Shown here piece after piece: positions 1,468 through 40,975 of a stretch of DNA of 64,000 nucleotides (position 1 is its first letter; every line of letters begins with the position of its first letter). The notes beneath the pieces were generated by a model. It searched no databases. It was not told the DNA's origin and worked only from the letters and a program-made list of their open reading frames with translations. This stretch comes from Alphaproteobacteria bacterium (GTDB taxonomy: Bacteria > Pseudomonadota > Alphaproteobacteria > RF32 > CAG-239): contig JAZNJJ010000003.1 of assembly GCA_045577985.1 (NCBI GenBank), forward strand, positions 87,192 through 151,191, read 5' to 3'. A program made the translations under genes and the position numbers.

Positions 1468-2436
1468 ATGGCAAGAATTAATGATGTATTTTATTCTGAT
1501 ATATATATAACACCGGATAAGCAGGTATTTGTACCAGACTCTAGATCAGAAAATGGCTTAACACAGATTCAAGCAGATGATTTTAATGATTTTTATGAAT
1601 TACTTGAAAAAATGTATCAAGGAAAATCAAGTTATTCAGTGATTTATGAAGGTTATTTCTTTCGTGTAGAAAGAACAGTTTCAATGTATGGTGTTATGTA
1701 CTGTATGCGTAAAATGCCAAAGAAAGTTCCTGATTTAAATAGTCTAGGTTATCCTTTGCCTTTAATTAATTACTTAGCAAGTTTAGGTAATGCTTCTGGT
1801 TTGATATTACTCGGAGGAGCAACAGGATCAGGAAAAACAACAACAATCTCTAGTCTATTACGAGAGTTTTTAGTACGCCATGGTGGTTTTGCATATACAA
1901 TTGAAGATCCGTTTGAAATGCCTTTAGATGGTGAATATAAATCGTTAAATGGTTCAATGGGATTATGTAAACAAACTCAGCCAATAGAGGATTGTTGGGG
2001 TGCTTCTTTGCGTTCAGCCTTACGTTCTCGACCACGTTATATCTTTGTTGGTGAGATTCGAACCCCCGATGCGGCAAGTGAATGTTTGCGTGCAGCAACA
2101 TCTGGACACTTAGTTCTATCAACTATTCACGCTAACAATGTATCTGATGCTATTGATGCTATGGTAAAACATGCATCCGCAGGTGAAATGAGCGAAGAAT
2201 TGGCATTTGACTTACTTTCTCGAGGTATTTTAGCTGTAATTCATCAATCATTAGTTGGTGTTGGCAAAAAACGTCCGGTTGTTCAATATTTATTTGCAAA
2301 CCCGAATAGTAATCAGGGTGATCAAACTAGAAATATTATAAAGAGTGGAAAAATAAATCTTGCAACAACAATTGAAATGCAAATGACCAGAATGTCTCAA
2401 GGAAGACCATTATTTGATATTGTTGATAGACAATAA
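1468..2436 (+). CDS. PilT/PilU/DotB-like hexameric secretion ATPase (possible pilus retraction motor)
   Basis: 322 aa. Walker A GGATGSGKTTT, Asp box AYTIEDPFE, Walker B RYIFVGEIR, His box GHLVLSTIHANN. The N-terminal FRVER...MRKMPKKVPDLNSLGYP resembles the PilT N-domain. RBS GGAGA upstream. Convergent with the pilus operon. Confidence 0.8.
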   Translation: MARINDVFYSDIYITPDKQVFVPDSRSENGLTQIQADDFNDFYELLEKMYQGKSSYSVIYEGYFFRVERTVSMYGVMYCMRKMPKKVPDLNSLGYPLPLINYLASLGNASGLILLGGATGSGKTTTISSLLREFLVRHGGFAYTIEDPFEMPLDGEYKSLNGSMGLCKQTQPIEDCWGASLRSALRSRPRYIFVGEIRTPDAASECLRAATSGHLVLSTIHANNVSDAIDAMVKHASAGEMSEELAFDLLSRGILAVIHQSLVGVGKKRPVVQYLFANPNSNQGDQTRNIIKSGKINLATTIEMQMTRMSQGRPLFDIVDRQ

Positions 2437-2452
2437 AGAATAATTTGCCCCC

Positions 2453-2481
2453 AAAAAAAGCCCTTAAATAGGGCTTTTTTT
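2453..2481. terminator. Bidirectional stem-loop terminator between convergent genes
   Basis: AAAAAAAGCCC-TTAAATA-GGGCTTTTTTT forms a perfect inverted repeat with an A-tract and a T-tract. It sits between the stop at 2436 (+) and the stop at 2480 (-). Confidence 0.55.
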
Positions 2482-3025: not shown

Positions 3026-3029
3026 TCTT

Positions 3030-4151
3030 TTAACCTTTACCCATAGAGCTTGTAATTTGATCTTGCATATCGAAAGTACCAAATACGGCCCAAGCAATAA
3101 TACCGGAAACCATCAACATTGCAGCCATATTCATTACTTCAGCTCTTTGCTCAATCAAAAATACAGATTCTTCAAGCCATTCGTTAGCAAGTTTATCCAA
3201 GGCCTCTTCAAAGTTGTCCAATTCAGAATAGATCTTTAAATCAGCAATAATCTGTTTATCTGGAAACTCTTGACCTGCTTTATCTAATGCTTGTCCTAAG
3301 TTATCACCGTTTTTAATATGGAATAAAGCACCATCAATACGTTCTTTCAAATATCTACTAGAATCTCTTCTTAATGATGTTAATGCCACTGAAACAGGTA
3401 CACCACCTTTTACCAACGCAGACAAAGCCAATAACCAAGTAATACCCGTGAAGATTTTATATAAAGACCAAGGTGGATAGTGATCAGCTTTAACTCTGGC
3501 TTTTCCTATCCAAAAACCAATTGTGGCATATATAGTTCCTCCGATAACAGGAAAGATTGAAAATGCTAATCCCCAATTTTCTTGAATCCATTCAGATAAA
3601 TCAATCAACGATTTTGCCGTTCCAGTCCATACTGTATTAGGTGCTGCACTTAACATAGGAGGCACCATGTAAACACCAATAGCATACAAAATCAATACAG
3701 ACATCATCAGTAAGAACGAAGGATAGGTAATAGCACTAATAATAGGTCTAATCATTCTAGTTGAACCTTCGGTAACTTTAATTAAGTTAAGTAAAGCACT
3801 TTCCAAATCAGAAACATCACCAACTGATAGCATAAGTCTTTCGCGGTTTGGAGCCCAACCTTTTAAACAGTCAGAGAAAGGATGACCTTCTTGTAAAGCA
3901 CGTCCCCATGCTGCAACAGAAACGGCTAGAGGATTATTAGGATGTTTACCCTCTTCAGAAAGACCATTATAAATCATTTCCAAGGCATTCATTAAAGAGA
4001 ACCTGTTTTTTAATAACGCTGCAAGTTTTCTATATATTTTCAACCGCCCTTTACCAGAAAAAGCGCACATAAATTTAGCGTATTTTAAAAGCCATTCATT
4101 ATTATTATGTAAAGCCTTACTATAGGCACTTTGTTTTTTTACTTCAGGCAT
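3030..4151 (-). CDS. GspF/PilC-family inner-membrane platform protein (R64 PilR-like)
   Basis: 373 aa polytopic protein with two GspF-like halves, e.g. GDNLGQALDKAGQEFPDKQIIADLKIYSELDNFEEALDKLANEW. It lies immediately downstream of the GspE-type ATPase. Confidence 0.8.
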   Translation of the reverse strand: MPEVKKQSAYSKALHNNNEWLLKYAKFMCAFSGKGRLKIYRKLAALLKNRFSLMNALEMIYNGLSEEGKHPNNPLAVSVAAWGRALQEGHPFSDCLKGWAPNRERLMLSVGDVSDLESALLNLIKVTEGSTRMIRPIISAITYPSFLLMMSVLILYAIGVYMVPPMLSAAPNTVWTGTAKSLIDLSEWIQENWGLAFSIFPVIGGTIYATIGFWIGKARVKADHYPPWSLYKIFTGITWLLALSALVKGGVPVSVALTSLRRDSSRYLKERIDGALFHIKNGDNLGQALDKAGQEFPDKQIIADLKIYSELDNFEEALDKLANEWLEESVFLIEQRAEVMNMAAMLMVSGIIAWAVFGTFDMQDQITSSMGKG

Positions 4152-4160
4152 TTAATCCTC

Positions 4161-5948: not shown

Positions 5949-5956
5949 TTTCTAAC

Positions 5957-7508: not shown

Positions 7509-8756
7509 TTATAACTCATAAATTTCTCCCTTATAGCTCCAATTTCCAGAATTAATATCATATGTTATAGTATTAACAGTTAACCCTGAAAATTTCATTA
7601 ATAATTCAATCCACATTAAAGGATCACTATTAGACGTAAAAGAATACCCCATAACTTTGTATCTATTACCTCTTGGTGATTGCCACGTAGTTGGTGACAT
7701 TTTTATATCTATACCAAGACCTTGATTTAAGTCATTGATAATATCAATCAATTCTTCTTCTTTATACTCTGGAGGTGAGTTTAATGTACTTATTTCACCA
7801 ATAGGTACGGTCACCATAAAAGTATTACCATCTTTTGCAATAACTCTGGATGAAAACTCAACTCCTGAAACATCAAGAGCTTGCTCCATCCACATCATTC
7901 GACCTAATTCTCTTTTCCAAGATGTTACTAAACCTGTTGCTGGCTCACAAGTAACACCTTCTAATTTCCATCCTGGAGTTACAATCTGAACAACCTTTTT
8001 TGTTGCTTCAAAGCAATTTTTCATAACATCAATAGGATTCTCCAGTTTTTCCCATGGTTTAGGTTCAGGAGGAATAAATACCGGAGCCTCAACCTGCTCG
8101 ACTGGTGCAATTACCGGCGCATCAGGAGCGGTAAAAAACATACTCTGTAAGCTTGAATAACCAAACCAACCAATGATGGCAAAACCAATAACAATGATAA
8201 CAAGCATAATACCATCATTATTAGCACTTATCTTATCCAGCTTAACAGTTAAACCTTTTTTTAATAGTTTTCCTATTTCATCACTCTTAGTGTCTTCAAT
8301 ACCCCACTCAGGAGGAGCAAAGATCATATCCCAATCTGGCACTGCCAACATTGAAATAAATTGATCTTTTGCATCTTTTTCATCAACATAAAGAGTATCA
8401 CCATCTGATAATATCACATCGTTTCTAAAACAGATATACCACCATCCGGTATCAACTTTGAATACACCAAGAAAGGAAGTTACGTTTCCCAATCCTGAAA
8501 CAAGAGACACTGCAGCAGAAGGAATGCCACGAGTAAATCCTTGAGCTGAAGAAGCCAAACCAAATTGTGATGATTTACCTTTTCTTACAGCATATAAATC
8601 TGCACCTTCAAGAATATTTTCAGCAGCTTCTTTAACTTCATTTAGTGGATTATCTTCATCCAAGAGTGGTTGCCAAAACAGACTCGCTGCATATGTCACC
8701 CCATCCTCAGTAAAGGACGATTTCCACGCTTTTTCTTCAGTTTGATCTTCAGCCAC
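7509..8756 (-). CDS. Bitopic inner-membrane pilus assembly protein (R64 PilO / BfpC / GspL class by topology and position)
   Basis: 415 aa with a single central TM (IMLVIIVIGFAIIGWFGYSSL) separating cytoplasmic and periplasmic halves of about 190 aa each. It sits between the secretin and the PilP-like gene. The assignment rests on synteny and topology only. Confidence 0.4.
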   Translation of the reverse strand: MAEDQTEEKAWKSSFTEDGVTYAASLFWQPLLDEDNPLNEVKEAAENILEGADLYAVRKGKSSQFGLASSAQGFTRGIPSAAVSLVSGLGNVTSFLGVFKVDTGWWYICFRNDVILSDGDTLYVDEKDAKDQFISMLAVPDWDMIFAPPEWGIEDTKSDEIGKLLKKGLTVKLDKISANNDGIMLVIIVIGFAIIGWFGYSSLQSMFFTAPDAPVIAPVEQVEAPVFIPPEPKPWEKLENPIDVMKNCFEATKKVVQIVTPGWKLEGVTCEPATGLVTSWKRELGRMMWMEQALDVSGVEFSSRVIAKDGNTFMVTVPIGEISTLNSPPEYKEEELIDIINDLNQGLGIDIKMSPTTWQSPRGNRYKVMGYSFTSNSDPLMWIELLMKFSGLTVNTITYDINSGNWSYKGEIYEL

Positions 8757-8771: not shown

Positions 8772-10379
8772 TTAATTCATTCTTGATTCAGGAGATAATG
8801 GAGATTCCAATACAACAGGAGTCAACATAATAACCAAAATCGTTCTATCCTTTTGAGCTGTAGAAGATCCTCCTAACAAGTTATTTTCAGGAGTTCCTAC
8901 GCCTTTTTTATCGGCAGTATTTTCAACACGTTCATAACCTGCTAAAATAAGTGTTTCGCCAGATTTCATAGCAACTTCTTGGGTAAATCCACGTGTTTCG
9001 ATAACTGGATTTTGAATATATTCGCTATCCCCTTCAGTAGCTTCTCCTTCTTCATTAGTACTGGTTGATGTAACATTAACAGAATCTAATGATAACAAAT
9101 CAGACAATGTTAAGTTGAAAAACATCAGGATTCTTCCATGATCCAAAATTCTTGGTAAAACACTCATAGTGAAACCTGTTTCAATTTCTTCGGTTTCAAC
9201 AGATATATCGTAAGAATCACTATCACCACTATTTGTTTTAGTAATTTCAGATATATAGTTTTGAGTTTTAACAACTTGGATTGGAGCCGGTTTGTTATTC
9301 ATTGTAGTAACAGTACCACTTGTAATCAAATTCGTCTGACCTTCTTCAGAGAGAGCTTGCATTGCTGCATCAACACTCCAACGGCTAGAACTAATACCCA
9401 TTGTTAAACTACTAATAGAGTTTTCTAATGCGCTAGTAGTTGAAGCACTAATATCTTTTATCGAACCACGTCCACCAAAAGTAGCTCTTAAGTCTAAACT
9501 ATACTGATCAGCATTAGAAATATTAACTTGAATAACTTTAACACTAATAGCAACTTGCTTAGATACACGCATATTTTGTTCATTAATATACTTTGCCACT
9601 CTCTTAATATCTGTTGGTGTAGCTGTTAACGTGATTGTTCCATTACCTTTATCCATAACCAAATTTGAATCTTGAGTAATCATAGATGAAATTGAGCTTT
9701 GAATATTTCCCCACATATCCATTCCATCAACAGAACTACTTTGGGATATACTAGCAGCACCGCCAGATCCTCCTACTGATACACTTAGAGAAGGGTTGGT
9801 TGGTAAAGAATACAATACAAATGTCTTTGTAATATACTTATAGAAATAAATTTCATTTTTTTCATATTTCCACCAAATACCAAAGCGATTAGCTACTTCA
9901 TCTAGTAATCCGCTGATAGGACCTTTATAATTTAAAATCATACGAGTAGAATCAGTCCATTGAGCACCAATATCCTTCATCGATGGTTGGTTGTGATCTG
10001 CGTTAGAAATTGCATCTTCTTCCAGTTCAGGAGCATAACGAACTGAGATAGATGTAATTTTATTAATCATACTACCTATTTCGTAAAGAGTGATTGGTCT
10101 ATTACTAATCAATGTAATACCATCAGATGTTTCTAAATAAGCAGGAACAGGCTGTCCCTCAAATTCAATACTACTTGTATCACCAAGCCAAATATCATCC
10201 TTAACTCTAATAACATCATCAGCTATAGGATCACCTGGAATAGCAGCCTTTTGTTTTAAATCCAACGCATTTTCCGCTTGTCTTGCCATTTGCTGGTCTA
10301 ATTCAGGAGAAACAGAACATGCAACGGTAATGCCAAGGATTCCGGCAATAGCAAGTTTAAATAAATTAGTCATACGCAT
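8772..10379 (-). CDS. Secretin lipoprotein (R64 PilN-like)
   Basis: The start at 10379 is preceded by GGAGGACGAAA. Lipobox ILGITVAC. The C-terminal secretin domain has VLPRILDHGRILMFFNLTLSDL, GETLILAGYERVENTADKKGVG and TILVIMLTPVVL. Confidence 0.85.
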   Translation of the reverse strand: MRMTNLFKLAIAGILGITVACSVSPELDQQMARQAENALDLKQKAAIPGDPIADDVIRVKDDIWLGDTSSIEFEGQPVPAYLETSDGITLISNRPITLYEIGSMINKITSISVRYAPELEEDAISNADHNQPSMKDIGAQWTDSTRMILNYKGPISGLLDEVANRFGIWWKYEKNEIYFYKYITKTFVLYSLPTNPSLSVSVGGSGGAASISQSSSVDGMDMWGNIQSSISSMITQDSNLVMDKGNGTITLTATPTDIKRVAKYINEQNMRVSKQVAISVKVIQVNISNADQYSLDLRATFGGRGSIKDISASTTSALENSISSLTMGISSSRWSVDAAMQALSEEGQTNLITSGTVTTMNNKPAPIQVVKTQNYISEITKTNSGDSDSYDISVETEEIETGFTMSVLPRILDHGRILMFFNLTLSDLLSLDSVNVTSTSTNEEGEATEGDSEYIQNPVIETRGFTQEVAMKSGETLILAGYERVENTADKKGVGTPENNLLGGSSTAQKDRTILVIMLTPVVLESPLSPESRMN

Positions 10380-11148
10380 TTTCGTCCTCCATAGTTTCAA
10401 TTACTAATACACGGTTTCCTTTATAAAATGTTGCAACAGGAGCAGGTCTAGCTCTAGCGAATGCTCTAACTAATGCAGAAGCAACATCTGCAAAATTACC
10501 TCTAAACATAGCTCCAGCATTTAATGTATAATTACGATTTGTTTTCCAAATCAATCTCCAACCAGATTCTTCGCTCCAGTTTGTCAAGAGTTCTTTTAAG
10601 CTTTGACCTTCTTCCGCTAACCAATCTTTAGTTGTATCTTCTTCTTCAGAAGTAGATTTATTTTCAGTTTGTGCATTTTCAGTATTATTATCTACAGATG
10701 TTGAATTTGTGTAACCTTGTTCATTAGTTGCTTGAATGTAAGCAGCATTAAACTGATTATTAGGATTACCCTCTCTTTCCATTATTGCAACTTCATAGTC
10801 AACAACTTCATCATCTATGCTAGGAGGAATTGCTGCAGACATATTATTTCCAGCTCTAGCCTGAGTAATACGATGATCTCTTGGTGTGCGTTCTCCATAT
10901 TTACGAAAATCAGCAGCTGTCTTTGTGTAGTTCACATATTCAGGAGCATCTTCGCAAACACTGAATCCCTCAGGAGTTTCAACACAAACCTCATTATATT
11001 CCTGATTACTAGTACAGATGCCATCTTCACATTCTTCTTTTAGATAGCTTTCGTTACTAATACATCCAGAAAGTCCCAGAACACTGAATAATAAACCTAC
11101 AATTGTAAGTTTGTTAAACAAAATATTTTTCTTTAAATTACATCTCAT
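10366..11148 (-). CDS. PilL/TcpQ-domain lipoprotein
   Basis: Lipobox VLGLSGC. The C-terminus LLTNWSEESGWRLIWKTNRNYTLNAGAMFRGNFADVASALVRAF...KGNRVLVI fits the TcpQ/PilL domain pattern. It lies directly upstream of the secretin, as in R64/PAPI-type clusters. Confidence 0.6.
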   Translation of the reverse strand: MRCNLKKNILFNKLTIVGLLFSVLGLSGCISNESYLKEECEDGICTSNQEYNEVCVETPEGFSVCEDAPEYVNYTKTAADFRKYGERTPRDHRITQARAGNNMSAAIPPSIDDEVVDYEVAIMEREGNPNNQFNAAYIQATNEQGYTNSTSVDNNTENAQTENKSTSEEEDTTKDWLAEEGQSLKELLTNWSEESGWRLIWKTNRNYTLNAGAMFRGNFADVASALVRAFARARPAPVATFYKGNRVLVIETMEDENAYD

Positions 11149-11196: not shown

Positions 11197-12687
11197 TCAA
11201 TACCAAGGGTTATCTCCTTTTTTAACCGCTTTAGCCAATTCTTCTTCTGTTGCATACCGCACATTTCTAATAATAAAAGAGTTTGGTTCTCTATCTGTAA
11301 AAATTATATTAATTTTATTATAATCTACACTATTATTTATTAAGATTGTGTATAACAGGTTCAAACGCTTTTGTTGTAAGGCTTTGTTTGAATCTCCGTT
11401 TATACGAATTTCAATAATAACATTTTCATTTTTTGTTACATTTTCTGAAAAAGCGTGCAACCATTCTAATGTTTGACCTGATATTTCTGCTCTATTTGGC
11501 TGAAATGACAATTTTAACTCGGTAGGAGCTATATTGTTTTTTGCATTATCCAGTCCAAATAATTTTCTAAATGTAGAACTTTGAGAACTCTTCTTTTCTG
11601 TTTCGTCAGAACTATCATTTTCTTCAATCACATTATCTTCAGATGTTTTCTTGGTTCCCCCTGAAAGCCATGATACAATTCCCTCAGTTAGAGAAGAACT
11701 CTTCTTTTCTGTTTTTTCATTTTTTAATGGTTCTATAGGAGTTGTATTTGATACGGCATTTGTTTTATCTTCATTATCTTTATCTTCAGATAATGCCAAG
11801 TCTTCAAGAACTTTCTTTTCAAGCTTTTTATTTTCTTCAGATGTTGCCAACTTAGGAGTTAAGTTCTCTTCATTCAGAATATCTTCAGGGATAGGCAGTA
11901 AAATATTATCATTTTTTATTTTATATACAACTTGCGTTTCATTTTCTGATTTAGCTACATCATTTTGAGTTCTATCTAATGCCGAAATATTATCTCTATT
12001 AGCTTCATTAAATTGTTCAATAGTATTTCTTGTTATATGTTTATTTGCAACTTCTGCAACTTCCCATGGACTATCTTCTACTAAAGGTAATGGTTGCTCT
12101 AATTCAATAGAAGTTAAAGCTTTTTCGTTTTCGGACCCTAAGTTATCAATAACAACATTTGCCGACGCTAAGGCAATTTGGCTACTTTCCGCTTCGCTAG
12201 AAACAGAAACACTAGAAGCAGTTTTTTCAAAATTATATACTAAAGGTATTTCAAAAACAGGTGCAGATGATACATCAGCAATAACGAGTTCATTGTTAAC
12301 ATCTTCATTACCTTTATTGATAATACCTATTTCTTCTTTTTTTTCTTCCATAAGAATATTGGTATTGTCGGCTAAAACAATTGGAGCATCCTGAGTTGCG
12401 TTCTCGTCTTCTGGTTCATATAAAACAACTTCAGAATTTTGAATGTCAATAGGGACATCTTTTATTATTTCATTTGAAGCAAACTTTTCTTCTTTTACCT
12501 CATAAGAAGTTAAATCATCTTCATTTTGAGCAAATAATTCTATATTTTTGGTCTCTAACTCGGATACAACAAAATCTGCTTGTTTATCATTATGTGATAA
12601 AGTATTATAAAACTTAGTGGCCGCAAACACTGCAGCTAAAGAAAATATAAAGCTTCCTAAAAAGCATTTCAAACCAAATTTTGGCAT
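11197..12687 (-). CDS. Membrane-anchored acidic protein, first gene of the pilus operon; possible degenerate OmpA_C-like C-terminus
   Basis: N-terminal anchor FLGSFIFSLAAVFAATKF, then about 350 aa of E/D/N/S-rich low complexity. The C-terminal LSFQPNRAEISGQTLEWLHAFSEN...VIIEIRINGDSNKALQQKRLNLLYTILINNSVDYNKINI loosely follows the OmpA C-terminal domain pattern. Confidence 0.3.
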   Translation of the reverse strand: MPKFGLKCFLGSFIFSLAAVFAATKFYNTLSHNDKQADFVVSELETKNIELFAQNEDDLTSYEVKEEKFASNEIIKDVPIDIQNSEVVLYEPEDENATQDAPIVLADNTNILMEEKKEEIGIINKGNEDVNNELVIADVSSAPVFEIPLVYNFEKTASSVSVSSEAESSQIALASANVVIDNLGSENEKALTSIELEQPLPLVEDSPWEVAEVANKHITRNTIEQFNEANRDNISALDRTQNDVAKSENETQVVYKIKNDNILLPIPEDILNEENLTPKLATSEENKKLEKKVLEDLALSEDKDNEDKTNAVSNTTPIEPLKNEKTEKKSSSLTEGIVSWLSGGTKKTSEDNVIEENDSSDETEKKSSQSSTFRKLFGLDNAKNNIAPTELKLSFQPNRAEISGQTLEWLHAFSENVTKNENVIIEIRINGDSNKALQQKRLNLLYTILINNSVDYNKINIIFTDREPNSFIIRNVRYATEEELAKAVKKGDNPWY

Positions 12688-13041
12688 CTCTAAACCTTAT
12701 AAATGCAGGAGTATGTACGCAAAACCGGAGCGCAATACACCCGTCTTCGGATTGAGGATACAACTAATTGTGTTAAAATAGAGTTAATGAAGAATCACTG
12801 AATTAAACAAAATTTTCGACATCTGTTTTCGAGCATTTAAAATAATTAAAATGTTATCAAATTATTTACTTTTTATTGTTAAAATCAGCTAGTGTAAGGC
12901 ACTTTATAAATGTGAATTTTTTGTTACAAGACTTTTTATCTCGTAAAAACAGCATGTTGTTCGAATATTAAAAATCTGGAAGTTTTACAGAAAATGAGTT
13001 AATATAAAAGTGTGATAGAATTCTACTTAAGGAGAAGAAAA
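12688..13041. promoter_or_regulatory. Divergent control region between the pilus operon and the T4SS array
   Basis: This is the only sizeable non-coding gap between the two arrays. One candidate sigma70-like promoter is TTGTTA (12921..12926), a 17-nt spacer, then TAAAAA (12944..12949). TTTTCGA-type repeats lie at 12813..12840. Most of the region is duplicated upstream of the second virB2. Confidence 0.4.
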
Positions 13042-13410
13042 ATGAAATTTATAAAAAATAACATACTCAGCATCACTACTATGGTATTCTTATTTACCAT
13101 AGTTATGATGGGTGATTCTTATGCAGCTACAGTGTTTGGTGCTGCTCGTAATAAGTTGGTTGAGCTGTTTAAAAATGCCAAGATGATTGTATTTGTTATT
13201 GGTGGTTTTGGTTTAATTGCTTTGGCATTCCAAGCTATCTTTGGTAAAGTAAAATGGCCTTGGTTTGCAGCATTAGCATTCGGTTTGGCTGTAGTTGCTG
13301 CTGCAGGTGCTATCGTTAACTACGCCGCAAATACAAGTGGTGCTGCTTCTTTCAATGATAGCATAGGAACTTCTGATTACGATGGTACAGGTGCATTGGG
13401 CACAATGTAA
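13042..13410 (+). CDS. virB2: VirB2/TrbC-type T4SS pilin, copy 1
   Basis: The ATG at 13042 follows AAGGAGAAG; the track start at 13012 is an upstream GTG. It has a signal peptide ending DSYA/A and two hydrophobic helices separated by GKVKWPW (FVIGGFGLIALAFQAIFGKVKWPWFAALAFGLAVVAAAGAIV). Size is 122 aa. It lies upstream of virB3 and virB4. Confidence 0.75.
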   Translation: MKFIKNNILSITTMVFLFTIVMMGDSYAATVFGAARNKLVELFKNAKMIVFVIGGFGLIALAFQAIFGKVKWPWFAALAFGLAVVAAAGAIVNYAANTSGAASFNDSIGTSDYDGTGALGTM

Positions 13411-13435
13411 GTGAGTTTGCACTTTCTTTGTTTTA

Positions 13436-13462
13436 TTCGGAGAGGGATAGCCCCTCTCCGAA
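13436..13462 (+). other. Perfect 11-bp stem-loop downstream of virB2 copy 1
   Basis: TTCGGAGAGGG-ATAGC-CCCTCTCCGAA. No U-tract follows it, so it is not a canonical intrinsic terminator. A homologous hairpin follows copy 2. Confidence 0.5.
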
Positions 13463-13861: not shown

Positions 13862-14236
13862 ATGAAATTTATAAAAAATAACATACTCAGCATCACCACT
13901 ATGGTATTCTTATTTACCATAGTTATGATGGGTGATTCTTATGCAGCTACAGTGTTTGGTGCTGCTCGTGATAAGTTGGTTGAGCTGTTTAAAAATGCCA
14001 AGATGATTGTATTCGTTATTGGTGGTTTTGGTTTAATTGCCTTAGCATTCCAAGCTATCTTTGGTAAAGTAAAATGGCCTTGGTTTGCAGCATTAGCATT
14101 CGGTTTAGCTGTTGTTGCAGCAGCAGGTGCTATCGTTAACTACGCCGCAAATACAGATGGTGCTGCTTCTTTCAATGATAGCATTGGAGATCAAGCACAT
14201 GCCGGTTCAGGTGAATTGGATACTACAAATTGGTAG
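13862..14236 (+). CDS. virB2: VirB2/TrbC-type T4SS pilin, copy 2 (divergent C-terminal tail)
   Basis: It has the same RBS and start context as copy 1. The protein is identical by eye except for ARNKL>ARDKL and the last 25 residues or so. Confidence 0.75.
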   Translation: MKFIKNNILSITTMVFLFTIVMMGDSYAATVFGAARDKLVELFKNAKMIVFVIGGFGLIALAFQAIFGKVKWPWFAALAFGLAVVAAAGAIVNYAANTDGAASFNDSIGDQAHAGSGELDTTNW

Positions 14237-14251
14237 TAACACTTTGTTTTA

Positions 14252-14278
14252 TTCGGGGAGGGATTATTCCTCTCCGAA
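14252..14278 (+). other. Conserved stem-loop downstream of virB2 copy 2
   Basis: TTCGGGGAGG...CCTCTCCGAA. The A>G change relative to copy 1 gives a G-U pair, so the structure is retained. It lies about 25 nt upstream of the next pilin start. Confidence 0.4.
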
Positions 14279-14304
14279 GAGACAATTATCTTATGGAGGT
14301 TATT

Positions 14305-14628
14305 ATGTTGTGCATTAAAATAGGGAAATTTATTTATAATAACAAATATACATTATGTTTGTTTCTTTCTTTATTTTTATTCACAACAGATGCTTTTGCC
14401 GCATTTGAAGCTTTGGATACTGCCGGAAAAACTATATTCAAAGGTTTAAGAAAAGTTATATACCCTGCTGCCACTATTGGTATTGCTTGTATTTGTATTG
14501 CCGGAATGTTTGGAAATTTCAACTGGAAATGGCTTGCAGCTATTCTGATTGGTGTATTTGTTATTGCAGTTGCGACACAGGTTGCTGGTTTGACCGGGGC
14601 AGAAGTTAGTCTGGATGGCGGAGATTAG
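14305..14628 (+). CDS. VirB2-like pilin paralogue 3
   Basis: The ATG at 14305 lies 5 nt after GGAGG. Signal peptide ...TTDAFA/A, then two hydrophobic segments around GNFNWKW (ATIGIACICIAGMFGNFNWKWLAAILIGVFVIAVATQVAG). The architecture matches copies 1 and 2. Confidence 0.6.
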   Translation: MLCIKIGKFIYNNKYTLCLFLSLFLFTTDAFAAFEALDTAGKTIFKGLRKVIYPAATIGIACICIAGMFGNFNWKWLAAILIGVFVIAVATQVAGLTGAEVSLDGGD

Positions 14629-14637
14629 GAGGGTATT

Positions 14638-15009
14638 ATGAAAAATAAAGTATTTTATCTACTTTTATTGTTTGTCGGTATAATCCTCACTCCAAATAAT
14701 GCTTATGCTGATATTTGGGATAGTTTGTCAGGTAAAGCGGATGAAATAGGTAAAGGCCTGTCTAATGTTGGATATATTATAGCTGGATTTGGTCTTATTG
14801 CATTTTCTGTTGCCGCCATTTTTAATAAAATATCCTGGAAAACGCTTGCTTATATCATGATAAGTTGTTTTATTTTAGGTATTACAACAATGGTTGTGGG
14901 AGAGATTACTGGAGAATCAGAATTTATCGGTTATCTTGATTATTCTTCGTCAGCAAGTGCAAATGTTGAAACTCCTGGTGATGCTCAGAGTGTTTCCGTA
15001 AAAAAGTAA
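14638..15009 (+). CDS. VirB2-like pilin paralogue 4
   Basis: RBS AGGAGG. Signal peptide ...NNAYA/D. The core GYIIAGFGLIAFSVAAIFNKISWKTLAYIMISCFILGITTMVVG has the same two-helix layout. Confidence 0.6.
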   Translation: MKNKVFYLLLLFVGIILTPNNAYADIWDSLSGKADEIGKGLSNVGYIIAGFGLIAFSVAAIFNKISWKTLAYIMISCFILGITTMVVGEITGESEFIGYLDYSSSASANVETPGDAQSVSVKK

Positions 15010-15021
15010 GGAAGCAAATAA

Positions 15022-15462: not shown

Positions 15463-15749
15463 GAGAGGATATATTAAAAGCAGTTGCTCAACCACCTAAA
15501 TTTTTGCTTGCACCAATGGTTCCTGGAATTATTAATTTAGGCATACAGTTTCCAATGTTGTTTATGGGGATTGGTATTGCAGATATGAATCCTTTGTTTT
15601 TTGGAACAACCATAATAATGGCACATTTGGGATTAGTTGTTGCCGGTGTTAAAGAACCTCATTTATCTACGATGATGCAAGCTTATGGTCAAACAAATAA
15701 AATAAGTAGCAATCTTTATGCAGTAAGAGGAAATAAATTTGAGCCATGA
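15459..15749 (+). CDS. virB3: VirB3/TrbD-like protein
   Basis: 96 aa with two TM segments (LLAPMVPGIINLGIQFPMLFMGIGI; FFGTTIIMAHLGLVVAGV). RBS GGGAGG. It is translationally coupled (ATGA) to virB4. Confidence 0.7.
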   Translation: MREDILKAVAQPPKFLLAPMVPGIINLGIQFPMLFMGIGIADMNPLFFGTTIIMAHLGLVVAGVKEPHLSTMMQAYGQTNKISSNLYAVRGNKFEP

Positions 15750-18175
15750 ACCAGTATGATATTTTTAGTATTTTTGTTGAAGGGCTTAGTAACGTAGAAG
15801 TTGCTGTGGCTCTTATTGGTATAGCTTCAGCAGCCTCTTTTGCTGTGTTATTATCAACTAAATTTGGAAACTGGATTCTTCCTCAACCTCGAGAGTCTCG
15901 TGTGTCTGACTTTTTGCCTTTTACTAAATTGATGTCAGATGGTGTAACTATTCAATGTAGCAATAATTCGTATGCTCGTGTATTTCGCTTAGACGGTGTA
16001 GATTTGTCTTCTGCAACAGCTGAAGCTATATATTCAATGATGGAAGCTCGCAAATCTTGGATTGATGATATGGCAAACATGCAAATTGTATGTCGTGTCA
16101 TAACAACAAGAAATCGCACATCATTAGAAAGTGAAAAAAGAGATTTTGGTAATCAGCTGTTAGAAACAGTATCCGAAATATGGTATCAAAACATGAATAG
16201 GGTATATAGTAATAAACACTATATTATTCTTTCTGTGATAGATCGCAAAGATGCATTAAAAGATTTGAATTATGCATCACAAAGCTTGATTTCAACACTT
16301 GGAGAATATGGCGTGAGCCCTATGTATGAAACAAGTGATAGTAAAGCAGTTGATGGACCTTTTTATCTATTTTCGCAATTATGTAGTCCGGTATCCAAGC
16401 CAGAACCTAAGGTTCGCAATACAGAAGGTGCTCGTTTATGTGAGATGCTCACCGCAGATCATATCCATTTTACAAAAGAAGAGGGTATTATAAAATTCTT
16501 TTCCGGAGAAAAAGAAGTATATGAAATTGCAATGGGTATAAGAGTTAGTGGTGACGCAATGGATGAAAGTATGATTTATTCATTGAACGCTATTGATTGT
16601 GAGCTAGTTATTTTGCATAATATTCGTCCAATGTTTAGAGCTGAAGCTAGAATGCTCTTGGTTCAACAACAACGAATGGCGGCAGTAACAAGTTTTTCTG
16701 GAGGTGTTGCTGAACAATATGATGAGGCCTTGGCTTCAATAGATGATAGTGATAGCAATTACCAATCATTGTGTGAGTACTCCATGACTATTATCCTTAA
16801 AGGAGAAAGTATGGAAGAAATAAACTTTGGAGAGTCTGAAGTTCAACGTATTTGTCGTGCATTTGGTGTAACACCTGTTCGAGAAGGTTGGGTAAACCAA
16901 GCTGTATTCTTTACACAATTTCCTACATATGATACATATCCACGAACATATCGTTATCTCTCCCGAGTGATTGCAATGGCAATTACATTAGATAAGCCTG
17001 CAGAGGGATTTGGTAAGAGTGACTGGGGACAAGGAGCAATTTCTATATTCCGTACAATGTCCGGATCAGCATATAGATTTCAATTCCATGTATCTAGTGA
17101 AGAGTCAGCCGTTGCCCACTGTTGTATTATTGGACCTACAGGTCAAGGTAAAACAACGTTACTTACTTTCCTTGCTGGTCAGGCAATGAGACATGGTGAT
17201 TTGAAGGTGTTTTTCTTTGATAGACACTTAGGTGCTCAAATCTTTACACGAGCAGTAAAAGGTGCATATATAGGCTTTGACGGTGATGAAAAGAATGTTG
17301 CCTTAAATCCGTTTGACTGTGCAAATACTCCTGAAAATAGAGCATTTTTAAGACGATGGTTAAAAGCTATCACAATGGTTGATGATGCATTGGCAGATAG
17401 AGAGGTTTCTCGTGCTGTAACGACTGCTTTTGATTATTTACGTCCTGAAGAGAGATTATTGAAGAATTTATATAAAAGCTGTTTTTCTCCAACAGGAAAT
17501 ATGCGAAGAGAATTATATCGTTGGGTGAATCCTGAACAATATGGTGCAATTTTTAACGGTCAAGATGATAGTTTAGACTTGAAAAGCCGTCGTTTCATGG
17601 CATTTGATTTTACACATATTTTTGAAGATGAAAATTTGGCACCTGCCGTAATTAGTTATATTATGCACAGAATTCAGGCAGAAACAGGTGAAACAGGTGT
17701 TCCGTCTTTAATTATGATAGATGAAACGGCACCAATGTTAAAACACCCTATGTTTAGAGATTACTTTATCATCGGTTTGCAAGAGGGACGTAAAAAACGT
17801 CAGGCATATCTCTGTGCATTCCAACAGCCGAATATTGTAGATAAATTAGGGGTTGGTGAAGTTATTCGTGGTCAGTGTCAAACTGTTATTTTCTTCCGCA
17901 ACCCTCAAGCACAAGTTGAAGATTACGCAAACTGGAACTTAACACAAAATGAATTAGATTTCATTTTTGGTAAAAGTTATCGAGATTTTCCTTATGCAAT
18001 ATTATTATCACGTCCTGTTACGGGAGAGTCTGTAATTTTGGATGTTAACTTAGGTGGTTTAGGTAAATATTTGCGAGTTTATAACTCCGGACGTAAAAAT
18101 GTTTTATTAGTTCAACAACTAATAAAAGAATACGGTGAAGATGGATTTGTTACAAAATATTTAAATATTGCCTAG
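15746..18175 (+). CDS. virB4: VirB4-family T4SS ATPase
   Basis: 809 aa. Walker A IIGPTGQGKTT, Walker B PSLIMIDETAPML. It has the typical VirB4 size and lies just after virB3. Confidence 0.9.
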   Translation: MNQYDIFSIFVEGLSNVEVAVALIGIASAASFAVLLSTKFGNWILPQPRESRVSDFLPFTKLMSDGVTIQCSNNSYARVFRLDGVDLSSATAEAIYSMMEARKSWIDDMANMQIVCRVITTRNRTSLESEKRDFGNQLLETVSEIWYQNMNRVYSNKHYIILSVIDRKDALKDLNYASQSLISTLGEYGVSPMYETSDSKAVDGPFYLFSQLCSPVSKPEPKVRNTEGARLCEMLTADHIHFTKEEGIIKFFSGEKEVYEIAMGIRVSGDAMDESMIYSLNAIDCELVILHNIRPMFRAEARMLLVQQQRMAAVTSFSGGVAEQYDEALASIDDSDSNYQSLCEYSMTIILKGESMEEINFGESEVQRICRAFGVTPVREGWVNQAVFFTQFPTYDTYPRTYRYLSRVIAMAITLDKPAEGFGKSDWGQGAISIFRTMSGSAYRFQFHVSSEESAVAHCCIIGPTGQGKTTLLTFLAGQAMRHGDLKVFFFDRHLGAQIFTRAVKGAYIGFDGDEKNVALNPFDCANTPENRAFLRRWLKAITMVDDALADREVSRAVTTAFDYLRPEERLLKNLYKSCFSPTGNMRRELYRWVNPEQYGAIFNGQDDSLDLKSRRFMAFDFTHIFEDENLAPAVISYIMHRIQAETGETGVPSLIMIDETAPMLKHPMFRDYFIIGLQEGRKKRQAYLCAFQQPNIVDKLGVGEVIRGQCQTVIFFRNPQAQVEDYANWNLTQNELDFIFGKSYRDFPYAILLSRPVTGESVILDVNLGGLGKYLRVYNSGRKNVLLVQQLIKEYGEDGFVTKYLNIA

Positions 18176-18250
18176 GTTTTGGAAAAAAGATTTATTTTTA
18201 ATGAAAAATATGATACGATATTTTTAATTAAGTATTATAGGGAGGTTATC

Positions 18251-22310: not shown

Positions 22311-22311
22311 A

Positions 22312-35813: not shown

Positions 35814-35818
35814 TTATA

Positions 35819-38800: not shown

Positions 38801-39991
38801 ATTGAGGATATTAAACATACATCAGCAAGTGAAATGTTTGTCCCAGCAGGTGCTTTTGGTCAAGGTAACCCATACGGCATAGGCTCTCAACCATCAAATT
38901 TAGGACCAGGAGGTGGATATGGACAAGGGGAACGATATGATCCCATAAGAGCAAACGCGCTTAACCAATTACAACAAGCTCGTCGAAGCGATATATCTGT
39001 AGGAAGAGTATCTACTAATGTAAAAATGTCTAATTTTACAGGCTATGAGGAAGATGGTTGGCCTGGTGTCGGTAAAAATATATCTACATGGAGAGTAGAT
39101 ATGAGCCAAATGATATTAGAAGATAAACCAATTCCTGCTGTATTATCTCGTTCTGTATACGCCTCAGAAGGATTTGGCAGTAACATTCCTGTAACAGCAA
39201 TTGTGGAGAGAAATATTTATGCTGAAGAAGGTCGAAATATCGTCATCCCAGCCGGCTCAAGAGTTATCGGTGCTTTAGGTGGAGAAGGTGGTACTGGTGG
39301 AAGCAGTGGTGGTGCTGTAAAGATTGGTATAAGCTGGCGTCGATTGATTCGTCCGGATGGTTCTCAGTTTACATTCGGAAATGCCCAAACAGCTGATTCT
39401 CAAGGTAGAGCTGGAGCAATTGGATATTTAGACGAACAATTACTGAAAAAATATACTATGCCAACTTTAACAACCATTGTTGAAAGTGCCACAGCTTATC
39501 TAACCGCAGCGGGAGAAGGAACTACAACATCAGACGGAGGTTCAACGGAAAGTTCCAAGAGCCAAGCTGCACAAGATGCACGTGATAATTTCTTAGAGCA
39601 AATGAATACAATATTTGATGATATAATGAATAGAAAAGCAAATATTCGTTCAGTTACATATATTCCTGCCGGTACAAGAATAATAATATTCCCTAATGAA
39701 GATTTATGGTTAAATGATGAAAAACGTGATAAAGAAAAAGAAGTTATAGACGAATATAGAGGAGGAAATTCAGGGCTTACAGAGAAAAGACCTGAGGCCG
39801 TAGGGTCAAGAGGTGGAGCTACGGTAACATATGATGGTACTTATAATGAAAATGTTCGTCCCGCAGGAGGAGGCTTGGTAGAAGAAACTCCTGCTCAAAA
39901 TCCTAATCGTAGAATAAGACAACTTCCTCCTGCCACAATACAACAAATGCCGGCAGAAGAAACTACAGATGATGTACCTGCTTTATTATAG
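35819..39991 (+). CDS. virB10: Giant (1390 aa) VirB10/TrbI-family protein with about 880 aa of N-terminal repeats
   Basis: RBS GGAGGA and N-terminal anchor IALITIVYILITITRVSA. Long G-x-x-I-G-x-V...G repeats are followed by an acidic/K-rich linker and a G/P-rich segment (GPGGGYGQGERYDP). The TrbI domain, about 39100..39710, reads IPAVLSRSVYASEG...VTAIVERNIYAEEGRNIVIPAGSRVIG...ISWRRLIRPDGSQFTF...ADSQGRAGAIGYLDEQ. Confidence 0.8.
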   Translation: MAKTNNYIKIALITIVYILITITRVSAAEITAVDFQGNIIGQVISTGLVINSNGENIGSITADSLIINENNEIIGGVVPQGIAIGNDNRMLGKVHSDGVVRSLSGKVLGKALPNGIAVDDNFTIIGSILFPGLIYSSEGKTIGRLTGSGTYTNLDGQEIGYVSANGYAYRKTGDDYVLDGILISSKMVVSNNGKFIGSISPSGRVIDFEGKDIGNVHANDYVYNDALKVIGKVVRTGYAFDLSGRYIGIISYNGAVINGDKTVGFYRSDGKIINDKETVIGFSVNISATANDNKGKYLGILVPNGLIVRGKEIIGRAGANKYVFDREGNKIGEIIETGPIYDALAKLKGESMRNGNIVSLGGGVIGQIKGRFAYDSNGVLIGGLSKDLFAISSNNNPLGIVGVDASIQDGANKSKASPFGYVFNSDGKIIGQNHELLPIYGLEGLLYSYVNPNGELYRNISDVNITQTGTLIGKNGYIGNILSPLYALNYDGIRFGNFANNNLIMNKKGGIDYKVIPGNYVVESQGALDQRLTPIKGFSGNRRIALNFGGDLLGYSNSSGEVVDLNGNILGHVIYGEYVVDNNNSVIGQLVPFVTVNNEKCQTLGIINGQGEILNNREVVVGKMLPNGQVLSDVGSYVGYTLFNTGLIDINGNFVGTQNLGVGVDFSGKNLGCANRKGLIYDNDNALKYSVINMEPAIDFDNKIIGNIISNGSIVDNNNQIIGHMQPNGDVVSKSKKVLGNVMKYKVAFSNDNKFLGMIHPSGEVLNQNGNKVGHINFDGSISSDGETIGYGLYDFYVYDENFITYGYITKDGTILNFLGSKVGNIDKGFVVNKKKQLVARIHRDFIVRDVSNNAVGELQLDGNIVNFLGENIGYLSESGSILNPEGQEIAKATPLQYYIIQSQEQSEKEEDEDWQKNNKKVQITDYKEEDNITKTSGEMSSGRRKIVGIAISPDGDVLGDIYDDESVRNKDGEQIGFRTPDGIIVDMNHNTIGIEDIKHTSASEMFVPAGAFGQGNPYGIGSQPSNLGPGGGYGQGERYDPIRANALNQLQQARRSDISVGRVSTNVKMSNFTGYEEDGWPGVGKNISTWRVDMSQMILEDKPIPAVLSRSVYASEGFGSNIPVTAIVERNIYAEEGRNIVIPAGSRVIGALGGEGGTGGSSGGAVKIGISWRRLIRPDGSQFTFGNAQTADSQGRAGAIGYLDEQLLKKYTMPTLTTIVESATAYLTAAGEGTTTSDGGSTESSKSQAAQDARDNFLEQMNTIFDDIMNRKANIRSVTYIPAGTRIIIFPNEDLWLNDEKRDKEKEVIDEYRGGNSGLTEKRPEAVGSRGGATVTYDGTYNENVRPAGGGLVEETPAQNPNRRIRQLPPATIQQMPAEETTDDVPALL

Positions 39992-40000
39992 GAGATAAAT

Positions 40001-40975
40001 ATGAGTGATTTTTCAGTATTAGAATCTGTTTTACGCCCATTATCCTATTGGTATACACAGGATAATTTGGAAGAAGTTGCCATAAATCGTGCCGGACAAA
40101 TATGGCTTCGTATGCGAGGCAAACGAGCATATCCGTGGGTGATGTATAAAGATGAGAAATTATCAAAAGAATATTTAACAGATTTATTATATATCATTGC
40201 TAATACTTATGAAATCAAATTTGATCCATTACAGGGATCACCATTAGTATATGCAACAATTCCTGGAGATCACCGTTTTTCAGCCATCTGTGGTAGAAAT
40301 ATCATGTATGATGAAGAGGATTTAACAGGAGGAATAGCCTTAACTATTCGTATTCATTCGGATGATGTAGCTTTTGGTCTTGAAGACTATGGAATGAGAC
40401 AAGGTGAGGCCTTAAAAAAATTAAATCCGCTAAAAGATATAAAAGTTCCTGATGATGCATATGAACGTTTATTGTTGTATATCAAAAGAGGAGAACATAT
40501 TCTAGTTAGTGGTGCTACTGCTACAGGTAAGACAACTTTCTTAAATAACTTGCTTAAAATATTAGATATACATAAACGTATCATAACAGTTGAAGATACT
40601 CGAGAATTAATAGTTCCACATCCTAATAGAGTTCATTTAGTTATGTCGCGTACAGATCAAACAAATGATATTGACTATGCAAAAATAATAGACCTTGTTG
40701 TGCGTTTTACACCAGACGCTATCATCGGCGGAGAGATTTCAACAAGTAATGCTAGTGGTATTTGGCAACTTATGGGATCTGGTCACGATAATTGTTTTGC
40801 AACGATTCACGCCGAAAGTTCTCAAGAAGCGTATCTCCAGTTTATAAAACGTATTATGGCATCAACAAATGGGGCTGTAAACGTTGAGCAAACACTAGAC
40901 GAAATGAAAAGAAAACTTCATGTTGTTCAGATTTGTAGAATGGGTAATCAGCGCGCAATTACAGAAGTAACCTAA
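40001..40975 (+). CDS. virB11: VirB11-family T4SS ATPase
   Basis: 324 aa. Walker A SGATATGKTT, VEDTRELIVPHPN, Walker B-like AIIGGEIS, His box GHDNCFATIHAES. RBS AGGAG. Confidence 0.9.
   Translation: MSDFSVLESVLRPLSYWYTQDNLEEVAINRAGQIWLRMRGKRAYPWVMYKDEKLSKEYLTDLLYIIANTYEIKFDPLQGSPLVYATIPGDHRFSAICGRNIMYDEEDLTGGIALTIRIHSDDVAFGLEDYGMRQGEALKKLNPLKDIKVPDDAYERLLLYIKRGEHILVSGATATGKTTFLNNLLKILDIHKRIITVEDTRELIVPHPNRVHLVMSRTDQTNDIDYAKIIDLVVRFTPDAIIGGEISTSNASGIWQLMGSGHDNCFATIHAESSQEAYLQFIKRIMASTNGAVNVEQTLDEMKRKLHVVQICRMGNQRAITEVT

Follow-up and report, generated by a model that had tools for sequence, protein, structure and literature searches.

A conserved chromosomal locus pairs a type IVb pilus operon with a divergent P-type type IV secretion system in gut Alphaproteobacteria

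Here we analysed a 64,000-nt stretch of contig JAZNJJ010000003.1 from an uncultured Alphaproteobacteria bacterium (hereafter the window; feature coordinates are window positions) and report a locus of ~40 kb (1468-40975) that joins two machines. One is a type IVb pilus operon of the kind carried by R64, running on the minus strand from 12687 to 2480. The other, divergent from the first, is a plus-strand array (13042-40975) for a type IV secretion system (T4SS), with four VirB2 genes, VirB3, VirB4, a set of secreted proteins, the series VirB8-VirB7-VirB8-VirB9, a repeat protein, VirB10 and VirB11. We consider it moderately likely that the locus encodes an inherited chromosomal cell-contact apparatus, which would attach the bacterium to partner cells and display or secrete proteins at its surface rather than transfer DNA. 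Both machines are of known kinds; what is new is their conserved pairing, a VirB10 expanded by beta-flower repeats, the pattern of paralogs and a set of fast-evolving secreted genes. A literature search that included RF32, Rs-D84 and Enterousia together with secretion systems returned no description of the locus.

Gene layout, conservation and chromosomal setting

A preliminary description of this DNA had presented the locus as an R64 PilL-S-like pilus operon facing a system that is VirB-like, and not of the I-type or GI-type. Our open reading frame (ORF) map and the Pfam and NCBIfam scans bore out its layout and coordinates almost gene for gene, and the matches of the individual components agree with both assignments (Table 1).

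Metagenomes contain hundreds of proteins closely related to this VirB4; the few that have names are entitled 'MAG: Alphaproteobacteria bacterium' (MAG, metagenome-assembled genome). When one genome per species was scanned, at least 80 loci were recovered, all but two of them with a VirB4 at 70-92% identity. Nearly all are titled Alphaproteobacteria or proteobacteria MAGs, from human, ruminant, horse or rabbit gut, and five bear unrelated names. The comparison of synteny with related genomes, which the preliminary description had called for, was made on the 56 species-level loci with at least 7 kb of DNA upstream of VirB4; in 49 of them the pilus operon lies divergent from VirB2-VirB4. One relative without a pilus operon at this site carries a gene for a BspA-type leucine-rich-repeat (LRR) protein a few kb upstream of its VirB2 genes (L023:4651-5628).

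A sister lineage, whose VirB4 shows 63% identity and whose pilus proteins show 40-70%, still has its pilus operon beside T4SS genes. There the pilus operon is followed by a divergent gene for a TrbL/VirB6-like protein of 650-860 aa, then by a XerC-like recombinase, aroK and a ROK kinase, and after these by VirB2, VirB2, a protein of ~1200 aa, VirB3 and VirB4. Seven sister-lineage contigs carry the VirB6-like gene opposite the pilus operon; VirB2 occurs within 10 kb in four of the seven, and VirB3/VirB4 in two. Since the sister lineage retains this related layout, the association between pilus and T4SS is older than the arrangement seen in the window, and the fact that it is shared argues strongly against both chance and a recent mobile insertion. 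The large protein between the VirB2 genes and VirB3 measures 1170-1424 aa (L089:16793-20497, L092:16687-20241, L094:16881-20387 and L095:17897-22082), and a segment of it resembles the fourth VirB2 of the window. VirB3 was seen in L089 and L094, the other two contigs ending before it.

The locus is embedded among core genes. On its left lies the gene for an M29 peptidase (275-1414), and on its right engB (40972-41616), which is convergent with the VirB11 gene and overlaps it by 4 bp. The G+C content is ~33% across the window, at 0.30-0.38 within the locus and 0.29-0.35 outside, with no shift at the borders. The remaining genes are housekeeping ones (yidC, rnpA, apbC, hflKC, degP, holC, kdsD, lptCAB, hpf, ptsN, gyrB and nrdDG), and the window holds no tRNA gene and no match to an Rfam family. 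Family scans for mobility genes covered window ORFs of at least 80-90 aa; among these there were zero matches to integrase, relaxase or type IV coupling protein (T4CP) families. On same-species contigs that continue 10 kb past the right end, the called genes encode a hydrolase-like lipoprotein, MarC, a H+-pyrophosphatase, an ankyrin-repeat protein and housekeeping functions, and no relaxase, T4CP or integrase. A megablast search of 72,556 plasmids found no DNA nearly identical to the locus. Of the hallmarks of conjugative plasmids or of integrative conjugative elements (ICEs), namely a relaxase, a T4CP, an integrase or attachment repeats, insertion at a tRNA gene and a patchy distribution, none was observed.

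These results agree with several earlier claims: that the locus is chromosomal and flush with core genes, that the window has no relaxase, VirD4, VirB1, prepilin peptidase, integrase or tRNA, and that the apparatus is domesticated. Mobility genes just outside the window, which had been named as evidence to the contrary, did not appear among the genes called in the next 10 kb to the right. Judging from the 49 of 56 divergent layouts and the retention in the sister lineage, we favour a chromosomal, vertically inherited and domesticated locus.

Composition of the two modules

The pilus operon opens with a gene for a 496-aa protein; a homologue stands in the same place, at ~30-45% identity, in 56 related loci as well as in the sister lineage. 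The Secretin, TcpQ, PAP_PilO, T2SSE and T2SSF matches of the operon all exceed their Pfam cut-offs. The secretin is best described by TIGR02520, the model for PilN-family type IVB secretins; its 267.6 bits fall just short of the equivalog cut-off of 287.65, and its top plasmid matches, at ~26-29% identity, are annotated as PilN or type IVB. The PilP-like protein is conserved in 53 loci. For the PilS-like pilin, the true start is probably the ATG at 3025. Its match to PilS_N is weak (E 0.03), and its positional homologues in relatives match Pfam Bundlin/PilS. No scanned ORF gave a family match to a PilV adhesin or shufflon, the search for inverted repeats having covered 12500-15100 only. Convergent to the operon stands an additional ATPase gene, whose product scores 120 bits against TIGR01420 (pilT_fam), under the cut-off of 319. 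A Thalassospira plasmid (NZ_CP004389) encodes an additional ATPase of 36% identity to it, next to a prepilin peptidase and the genes of a type IVb pilus. We count the window's ATPase in the pilus module.

The secretion system is distant from its curated references. The VirB4 ATPase scores 369 bits against TIGR00929, whose subfamily cut-off is 643, and its nearest solved structure is TrwK of R388 (E 3e-38); VirB10 reaches 87-115 bits where the NCBIfam cut-offs are 220-300. The two VirB8 proteins of the locus, CagX/VirB9 and TrbI/VirB10 all lie above their Pfam cut-offs, and the four VirB2 ORFs exceed the Pfam gathering score of TrbC. The VirB3-like protein matched no model; the protein annotated as VirB3 on Microvirga plasmid pMVF16-3 shares 27% identity with it (E 2e-8). 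The small lipoprotein is 43% identical to a 58-aa ORF located 5' of VirB8 on the same plasmid; this likeness, its lipobox and its position suggest that it is the VirB7 of the system. As every recognisable component matches P-type models, though far under the curated cut-offs, we assign the system to the P-type (VirB/Trb) as a very divergent member, by sequence criteria within the T4SS classes already described. The preliminary description had been unable to place it in a described class; that statement is not supported, given that the parts match P-type models and that the nearest plasmid relatives are alphaproteobacterial. VirB9 carries a C-terminal SPOR (peptidoglycan-binding) domain, in a window without a VirB1-type transglycosylase.

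The two operons diverge from an intergenic region of 354 bp. The gap measures 240-520 bp in nearly all relatives and contains conserved non-coding blocks, for example TGTTAAAATAGAGTTAAT, whereas matches to consensus promoters in the region were not enriched over shuffled sequences. A common regulation of both operons from this region is plausible. VirB2 paralogs a and b arose by tandem duplication of 820 bp, in which the non-coding DNA upstream was copied as well (12768-13116 against 13564-13936, 93-96% identical). The earlier proposal of one divergent control region stands as far as the conserved arrangement and non-coding blocks are concerned, but the first two VirB2 genes each have an upstream copy of their own. 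Each is also followed by a copy of a GC-rich hairpin, TTCGGAGAGGGATAGCCCCTCTCCGAA, which may act as a terminator or attenuator.

Two giant repeat proteins are encoded side by side upstream of VirB11. In the 1476-aa protein, the N-terminal transmembrane (TM) segment is followed by ~1250 aa of 17-residue beta-flower hairpin repeats of the form DxNGNIIGxV, which show in the protein and in the DNA alike. VirB10 consists of an N-terminal TM segment, ~900 aa of 17-residue beta-flower repeats, a Gly/Pro linker and the TrbI domain, and its matches in the PDB are the C-terminal domains of ComB10 and CagY. So far the beta-flower fold has been described from structure predictions only, and no function has been attributed to it (PMC10584680). 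Judging by their position, both repeat proteins would fill the periplasm around the channel.

The genes between VirB4 and the first VirB8 had been listed in the preliminary description as six unknowns. Indeed, none has a family match; they are, however, secreted and largely coiled-coil proteins, not membrane proteins, and the last two correspond to one protein in relatives. Those two (23539-24585 and 24608-27880) each have their own ribosome-binding site (RBS) and signal peptide and result from a gene fission. A frameshift between them was considered and rejected, given the RBS and signal peptide of the second ORF. Also rejected was the idea that the proteins following VirB4 are extended VirB6 paralogs of the rvh type: each has one N-terminal signal segment and no TM bundle. 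The first and third of the four coiled-coil proteins (18179-19255 and 20997-22310) share a Gly-rich C-terminal module. At 20801-20854, within the low-complexity tail of a 559-aa secreted protein, an 18-nt tandem repeat in three copies encodes KGNTSD.

No Pfam or PDB sequence match above coiled-coil noise was obtained for the secreted proteins. A VirB5 signal was sought in the proteins following VirB4 by relaxed Pfam scans, PDB profile searches, hhalign against the Microvirga proteins of the same position, and AlphaFold2 (AF2) with Foldseek, and none was found, the models being of low to moderate confidence. For the 1090-aa protein (24608-27880), AF2 predicted two small beta domains beside antiparallel helices of great length, with a predicted local distance difference test (pLDDT) score of 65; Foldseek gave this model no PDB match at E<=1e-3, and what it ranked highest were helical bundles of a generic kind (AhlB, SMC arms, chemoreceptors). 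With a pLDDT of 44, the model of the 348-aa protein could not be used.

The secreted proteins diverge far faster than the core of either machine. In the same set of genomes, median identities are 85% for VirB4, 69% for VirB3, 68% for PilO and 64% for PilN, against 29-38% for the secreted proteins. The four coiled-coil proteins have medians of 30-38%, and the 146-aa protein encoded just upstream of VirB3 is present in 49 related loci at ~33% identity. A slow core with fast secreted parts is the pattern that would be expected of exposed, interaction-facing components.

The array does not hold the complete set of T4SS genes. The preliminary description had overlooked a third VirB8 gene 22 kb away, at 63004-63798, in an islet that continues in L098:10001-11531. 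Its product shows 31% identity with paralog b and 27% with paralog a, and the identical protein occurs on 18 other contigs with the same neighbours. The T4SS genes are thus scattered in the genome. On the minus strand, divergent from the third VirB8, lies the gene for a 648-aa lipoprotein (61015-62961) with weak TolC-like (OEP) and Ig-like (He_PIG) matches. The gene that follows the third VirB8 and runs past the window end encodes a 250-aa lipoprotein with weak alpha/beta-hydrolase matches and a GYSGG motif. About 4 kb past the window end and the third VirB8, in the same species, a minus-strand gene encodes a 243-aa ankyrin-repeat protein (L098:14798-15529; Ank_2, E 4e-27). Ankyrin-repeat proteins are eukaryote-like and are often T4SS substrates in other bacteria; this one is a possible substrate of the T4SS described here.

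Table 1. Features of the pilus and secretion modules and of the separate VirB8 gene
Feature	Coordinates	Strand	Evidence
Accessory PilT/PilU-like ATPase, 322 aa	1468..2436	+	Pfam T2SSE E 8.8e-30; convergent to pilus operon
PilS-like type IVb pilin, 181-205 aa	2480..3097	-	One N-terminal hydrophobic helix, two C-terminal Cys
PilR-like inner-membrane platform, GspF family	3030..4151	-	T2SSF E 3.8e-23, two stretches; four predicted TM segments
PilQ-like assembly ATPase, GspE family, 595 aa	4161..5948	-	Pfam T2SSE E 2.3e-65; TIGR02533 230 bits
PilP-like secreted protein, 534 aa	5957..7561	-	Weak TIGR03021 pilP_fam, E 2.9e-4; between PilO and ATPase
PilO, bitopic pilin accessory protein	7509..8756	-	PAP_PilO E 1.6e-16, full length; one TM 182-200
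PilN-family type IVb secretin lipoprotein	8772..10400	-	Pfam Secretin; lipobox ITVAC
TcpQ/PilL-like lipoprotein	10366..11148	-	Pfam TcpQ E 6.3e-17; lipobox LSGC
First operon gene, unknown family, 496 aa	11197..12687	-	N-terminal hydrophobic segment; no family match
Divergent intergenic region, 354 bp	12688..13041	.	Between pilus operon and first VirB2
VirB2/TrbC paralog a	13042..13410	+	Pfam TrbC E 5.2e-8
GC-rich hairpin after VirB2a, copy after VirB2b	13436..13462 and 14252..14278	+	Sequence in text
VirB2/TrbC paralog b	13862..14236	+	Pfam TrbC E 5.1e-8
VirB2/TrbC paralog c	14230..14628	+	Pfam TrbC E 6.9e-10
VirB2/TrbC paralog d	14638..15009	+	Pfam TrbC E 1.5e-8
Secreted protein, unknown family, 146 aa	15022..15462	+	Signal-peptide-like N-terminus; no family match
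VirB3-like, 96 aa	15459..15749	+	Two TM segments; directly 5' of VirB4
VirB4 ATPase	15746..18175	+	Pfam CagE_TrbE_VirB
Four secreted, mostly coiled-coil proteins	18179-19255, 19280-20959, 20997-22310, 22249-23526	+	Signal peptides, no TM bundles
Split secreted protein	23539-24585 and 24608-27880	+	One ~1350-aa protein in nearly all relatives (alignment)
VirB8 paralog a	27896..28651	+	Pfam VirB8 E 1.2e-9; 27% identical to paralog b
VirB7-like small lipoprotein, 62-78 aa	28749..28985	+	Lipobox LILSAC; no family model match
VirB8 paralog b	28999..29739	+	Pfam VirB8 E 1.4e-20
VirB9/CagX with C-terminal SPOR domain	29757..31376	+	CagX E 2.2e-10, SPOR E 8.4e-4; 29% identical to Microvirga VirB9
Bitopic repeat protein, 1476 aa	31383..35813	+	TM 19-37; Pfam Bflower_2 E 3.3e-77, 12 stretches
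Giant VirB10, 1390 aa	35819..39991	+	Bflower_2 E 1.4e-51; TrbI E 5.5e-29 at residues 1099-1298
VirB11 ATPase	40001..40975	+	Pfam T2SSE; best NCBIfam TIGR02788 146 bits vs cut-off 250; 40% identical to Microvirga VirB11
Third VirB8 paralog, separate islet	63004..63798	+	Pfam VirB8 E 4.8e-17; 22 kb right of VirB11

Relation to described systems

The pilus operon follows the order of the R64 thin pilus (pilL-pilV) and of the type IVb pili of PAPI-1 and ICEclc, from the PilL-like protein through PilN, PilO, the PilP-like protein, the GspE ATPase and the GspF platform to the PilS-like pilin. In contrast to these pili, the window encodes neither a prepilin peptidase (PilU) nor a PilV, a shufflon or a PilT-type transglycosylase, and it has in addition the PilT-like ATPase and the 496-aa first gene. 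Its pilus is also chromosomal, vertically inherited and partnered with a P-type instead of an I-type or GI-type T4SS. The nearest type IVb pilus operon that we inspected on a plasmid, that of Thalassospira, accompanies I-type transfer genes, in line with the earlier statement on the usual company of these pili.

For the T4SS, the nearest plasmid relatives of VirB4 are alphaproteobacterial and 29-38% identical (Microvirga, Sphingosinicella, Erythrobacter and Ca. Paracaedimonas, the last on a plasmid typed MOBQ). The two of these plasmids that were inspected, from Microvirga and Paracaedimonas, carry relaxases and are conjugative or mobilizable. The closest likeness is to pMVF16-3 of Microvirga sp. 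VF16, with identities of 38% for VirB4, 40% for VirB11, 32% for VirB10, 30% for VirB8, 29% for VirB9 and 43% for the small lipoprotein. The plasmid shares the gene order of the window, its own series being B2-B3-B4, three small unknowns, the 58-aa lipoprotein and B8-B9-B10-B11. Unlike the window, it encodes a MobA/MobL relaxase and VirD4, and it has a single VirB2, a single VirB8 and a VirB10 of normal size. It also has no type IVb pilus within 20 kb, whereas the window has one adjoining; indeed, none of the plasmid relatives inspected has a pilus operon near VirB4. The T4SS of the window is best read as a descendant of the Microvirga-type plasmid family that would have lost the transfer genes from the locus and gained paralogs and large repeat domains.

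A parallel is found in the Rickettsiales vir homolog (rvh) system. This P-type T4SS is likewise chromosomal and inherited vertically, belongs to Alphaproteobacteria that depend on a host or partner, as those with the present locus may do, and has no recognisable VirB5 and genes set in islets. Multiple VirB2 copies are also present in some Rickettsiales. In Rickettsia typhi the local rvh order is B8-B7-B8-B9-B10-B11 (PMC4676284), and the VirB8 paralogs of the window share it. However, the window has secreted coiled-coil proteins where rvh has a four-to-five-fold VirB6 array after VirB4, it has no VirB4 or VirB9 duplicates and no rvhD4 after VirB11, and its T4SS, unlike rvh, has type IVb pilus genes beside it. 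None of the solved VirB8 structures, rickettsial RvhB8 among them, was matched significantly by the VirB8 paralogs, so we regard the likeness to rvh as a parallel and not as demonstrated ancestry.

The Cag system of Helicobacter pylori resembles the window in its VirB10 homologue, CagY, which is giant through a long repeat region N-terminal to the TrbI/VirB10 domain, and in an extra large repeat protein beside VirB10; the VirB10 of the window matches the C-terminal domain of CagY weakly. The repeats themselves differ, being 17-residue beta-flower hairpins and not of the CagY type, and the window has no other Cag-specific parts or features of a pathogenicity island.

A proposed cell-contact role and its alternatives

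Our model suggests that two machines, both from conjugation-associated ancestors, would act together as one apparatus. The type IVb pilus would make the first, long-range attachment to a partner cell, and it may also retract, through the extra PilT-like ATPase, to draw the cells together. The enlarged T4SS, with its four VirB2 variants and three VirB8 paralogs, would then build a surface structure, to which VirB10 and its companion inner-membrane protein would contribute ~1000 residues each of periplasmic beta-flower repeats. The Sec-exported, fast-diverging coiled-coil proteins encoded in the operon would serve as adhesins, tip proteins or substrates, either exposed on this structure or set free through it. 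The apparatus would have no part in DNA transfer. The partner could be a bacterium, a protist or the host epithelium; the ankyrin-repeat protein, together with the BspA-type LRR protein of one relative, may hint at a eukaryotic partner.

Several observations weigh against this proposal. For both modules, the nearest relatives are plasmid-borne and accompanied by transfer genes. On the pilus side, no prepilin peptidase, either as an A24-like polytopic ORF or as a family match, was found in the window. The leader of the pilin has Gly as its last residue, with no Glu at +5, and the pilin of the sister lineage (L087:1-197) has no Gly before its hydrophobic helix, such that pilin processing may be non-canonical. 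Given the atypical leaders and the lack of a peptidase gene in the window, assembly of the pilus is not assured. In addition, seven of the 56 species have housekeeping genes in place of the pilus operon at this position, which means that physical linkage is not obligatory.

On the T4SS side, no VirB5 was recognisable in the window, no scanned window ORF matched VirB1 or a lytic transglycosylase, and no VirD4-type coupling protein was found among the scanned window ORFs or in the next 10 kb rightward. Nor did the 64 kb contain a polytopic VirB6-like ORF. The screen for VirB6 took all window ORFs of at least 80 aa with at least three predicted TM segments and returned only PilR, the VirB2 proteins, YidC, a YccA-like protein and ORFs of ~110 aa antisense inside annotated genes, and the VirB6-like proteins of the clade had no tblastn match to the window. 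By the canonical VirB model the machine as seen would be incomplete and would need genes encoded elsewhere. The scattering of T4SS genes and the VirB6-like gene of the sister lineage mean that the absence of VirB6, VirD4 and prepilin peptidase from the window cannot be extended to the genome. The earlier claim that VirB6 is lacking is thus correct for the window, but in the sister lineage a TrbL/VirB6-like gene faces this pilus operon directly. Genes at other sites may contribute a coupling protein and a VirB6 to the apparatus. The few VirB6 matches could have been taken as a sign that the gene is absent genome-wide; we rejected that inference, since the word-based search is too insensitive for fast-evolving proteins: of a protein that more than 60 of the fetched loci are known to contain, it recovered only nine homologues.

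A narrower form of the cell-contact proposal is an organelle for adhesion only, in which the coupling protein and transfer have been lost and the pilus serves as a second adhesin. The model for it is the Trw system of Bartonella, described as a non-translocating adhesion organelle whose duplicated VirB2 and VirB5 form variable pili (PMC4676284). The locus resembles Trw in its amplified VirB2 variants, in its variable, fast-evolving secreted proteins and in having no coupling protein in the locus or the window. On the other hand, Trw amplifies recognisable VirB5, VirB6 and VirB7 and has neither a giant VirB10 nor a linked type IVb pilus, no VirB5-like fold or family has been demonstrated for any of the proteins following VirB4, and VirB11 and VirB4 of the locus are highly conserved. 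We regard this account as rather improbable. Trw, for its part, derives from the conjugation system of R388.

Working or recently decayed conjugation would explain the plasmid affinities directly: the pilus would stabilise mating pairs as in R64, and a relaxase, a T4CP and VirB6 would lie in other islets. The nearest plasmid VirB4, VirB8, VirB9, VirB10 and VirB11 are encoded together with the MobA/MobL relaxase and VirD4 of the Microvirga plasmid, the nearest plasmid PilN lies beside I-type transfer genes in Thalassospira, and the displaced third VirB8 implies that missing parts could lie elsewhere. Yet neither the 64 kb, which is also free of tRNA genes and repeats, nor the genes called over a further 10 kb include a relaxase, a T4CP or an integrase. 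The locus has a fixed position on the chromosome, a host-like composition and no near-identical counterpart on the plasmids searched, and it has been retained in at least 80 species with its core parts under purifying selection. For these reasons we think conjugation unlikely, more so than adhesion alone.

A DNA-uptake (competence) machine of the ComB kind known from Helicobacter, cooperating with a type IV pilus, is very improbable: although ComB10 is the best-scoring match of the VirB10 C-terminal domain (PDB 2bhv, E 2e-17; NF038092, 115 bits) and no T4CP or relaxase is nearby, those 115 bits are far under the family cut-off of 300, the plasmid matches of VirB4 already suggest a placement away from ComB, the giant periplasmic repeat proteins and the many secreted coiled-coil proteins have no ComB counterpart, and VirB11 is present, which ComB systems, to our knowledge, lack.

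The cell-contact proposal can be set in the biology of the host. The nrdD and nrdG genes (window 54855-60538) and the membrane H+-pyrophosphatase (L098:12214-14664) indicate an anaerobic, energy-frugal organism. Members of the order Rs-D84 are gut Alphaproteobacteria that are reduced and metabolically dependent, with a GC content of 34-39% and genomes of <1 Mb, and a dependence on partner cells has been proposed for them (PMC12306168, PMC8957277). The GC content and H+-pyrophosphatase of the present host are compatible with that description, which makes Rs-D84 a candidate assignment only. In genome surveys of such a low-GC, sub-1-Mb gut order, partner dependence was proposed and no machinery was named (PMC12306168). 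An apparatus of ~40 kb kept in at least 80 species is a concrete candidate for attaching to and exploiting a partner, and it would take up several per cent of the genome if the genome is as small as in an Rs-D84-like order. A stronger version, to which we give only a low probability, is that a widespread clade of gut and rumen Alphaproteobacteria with reduced genomes lives, as epibionts or parasites, in dependence on partner cells, and that the coupled pilus and T4SS are the organelle at the centre of this life. A cell would be caught and drawn in by the pilus; the enlarged T4SS, working without the usual VirB6 and coupling protein and with a periplasmic scaffold of beta-flower repeats, would dock on it and deliver or display rapidly diversifying, Sec-dependent coiled-coil proteins.

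These uncultured Alphaproteobacteria occur in many gut metagenomes from humans (Hadza, Nepal and other gut MAG sets), ruminants, horses and rabbits. For type IVb pili, the locus adds the P-type as a third pairing beyond the I-type and GI-type. For T4SS biology, it adds a second example of a giant, repeat-bearing VirB10 and an rvh-like pattern of paralog expansion and gene scattering. It would also provide a first functional context for the beta-flower fold.

Among the housekeeping genes of the window, a single 349-aa ORF (51781-52830) appears to be a fusion of two LPS-transport proteins, its first half matching LptC and the rest LptA.

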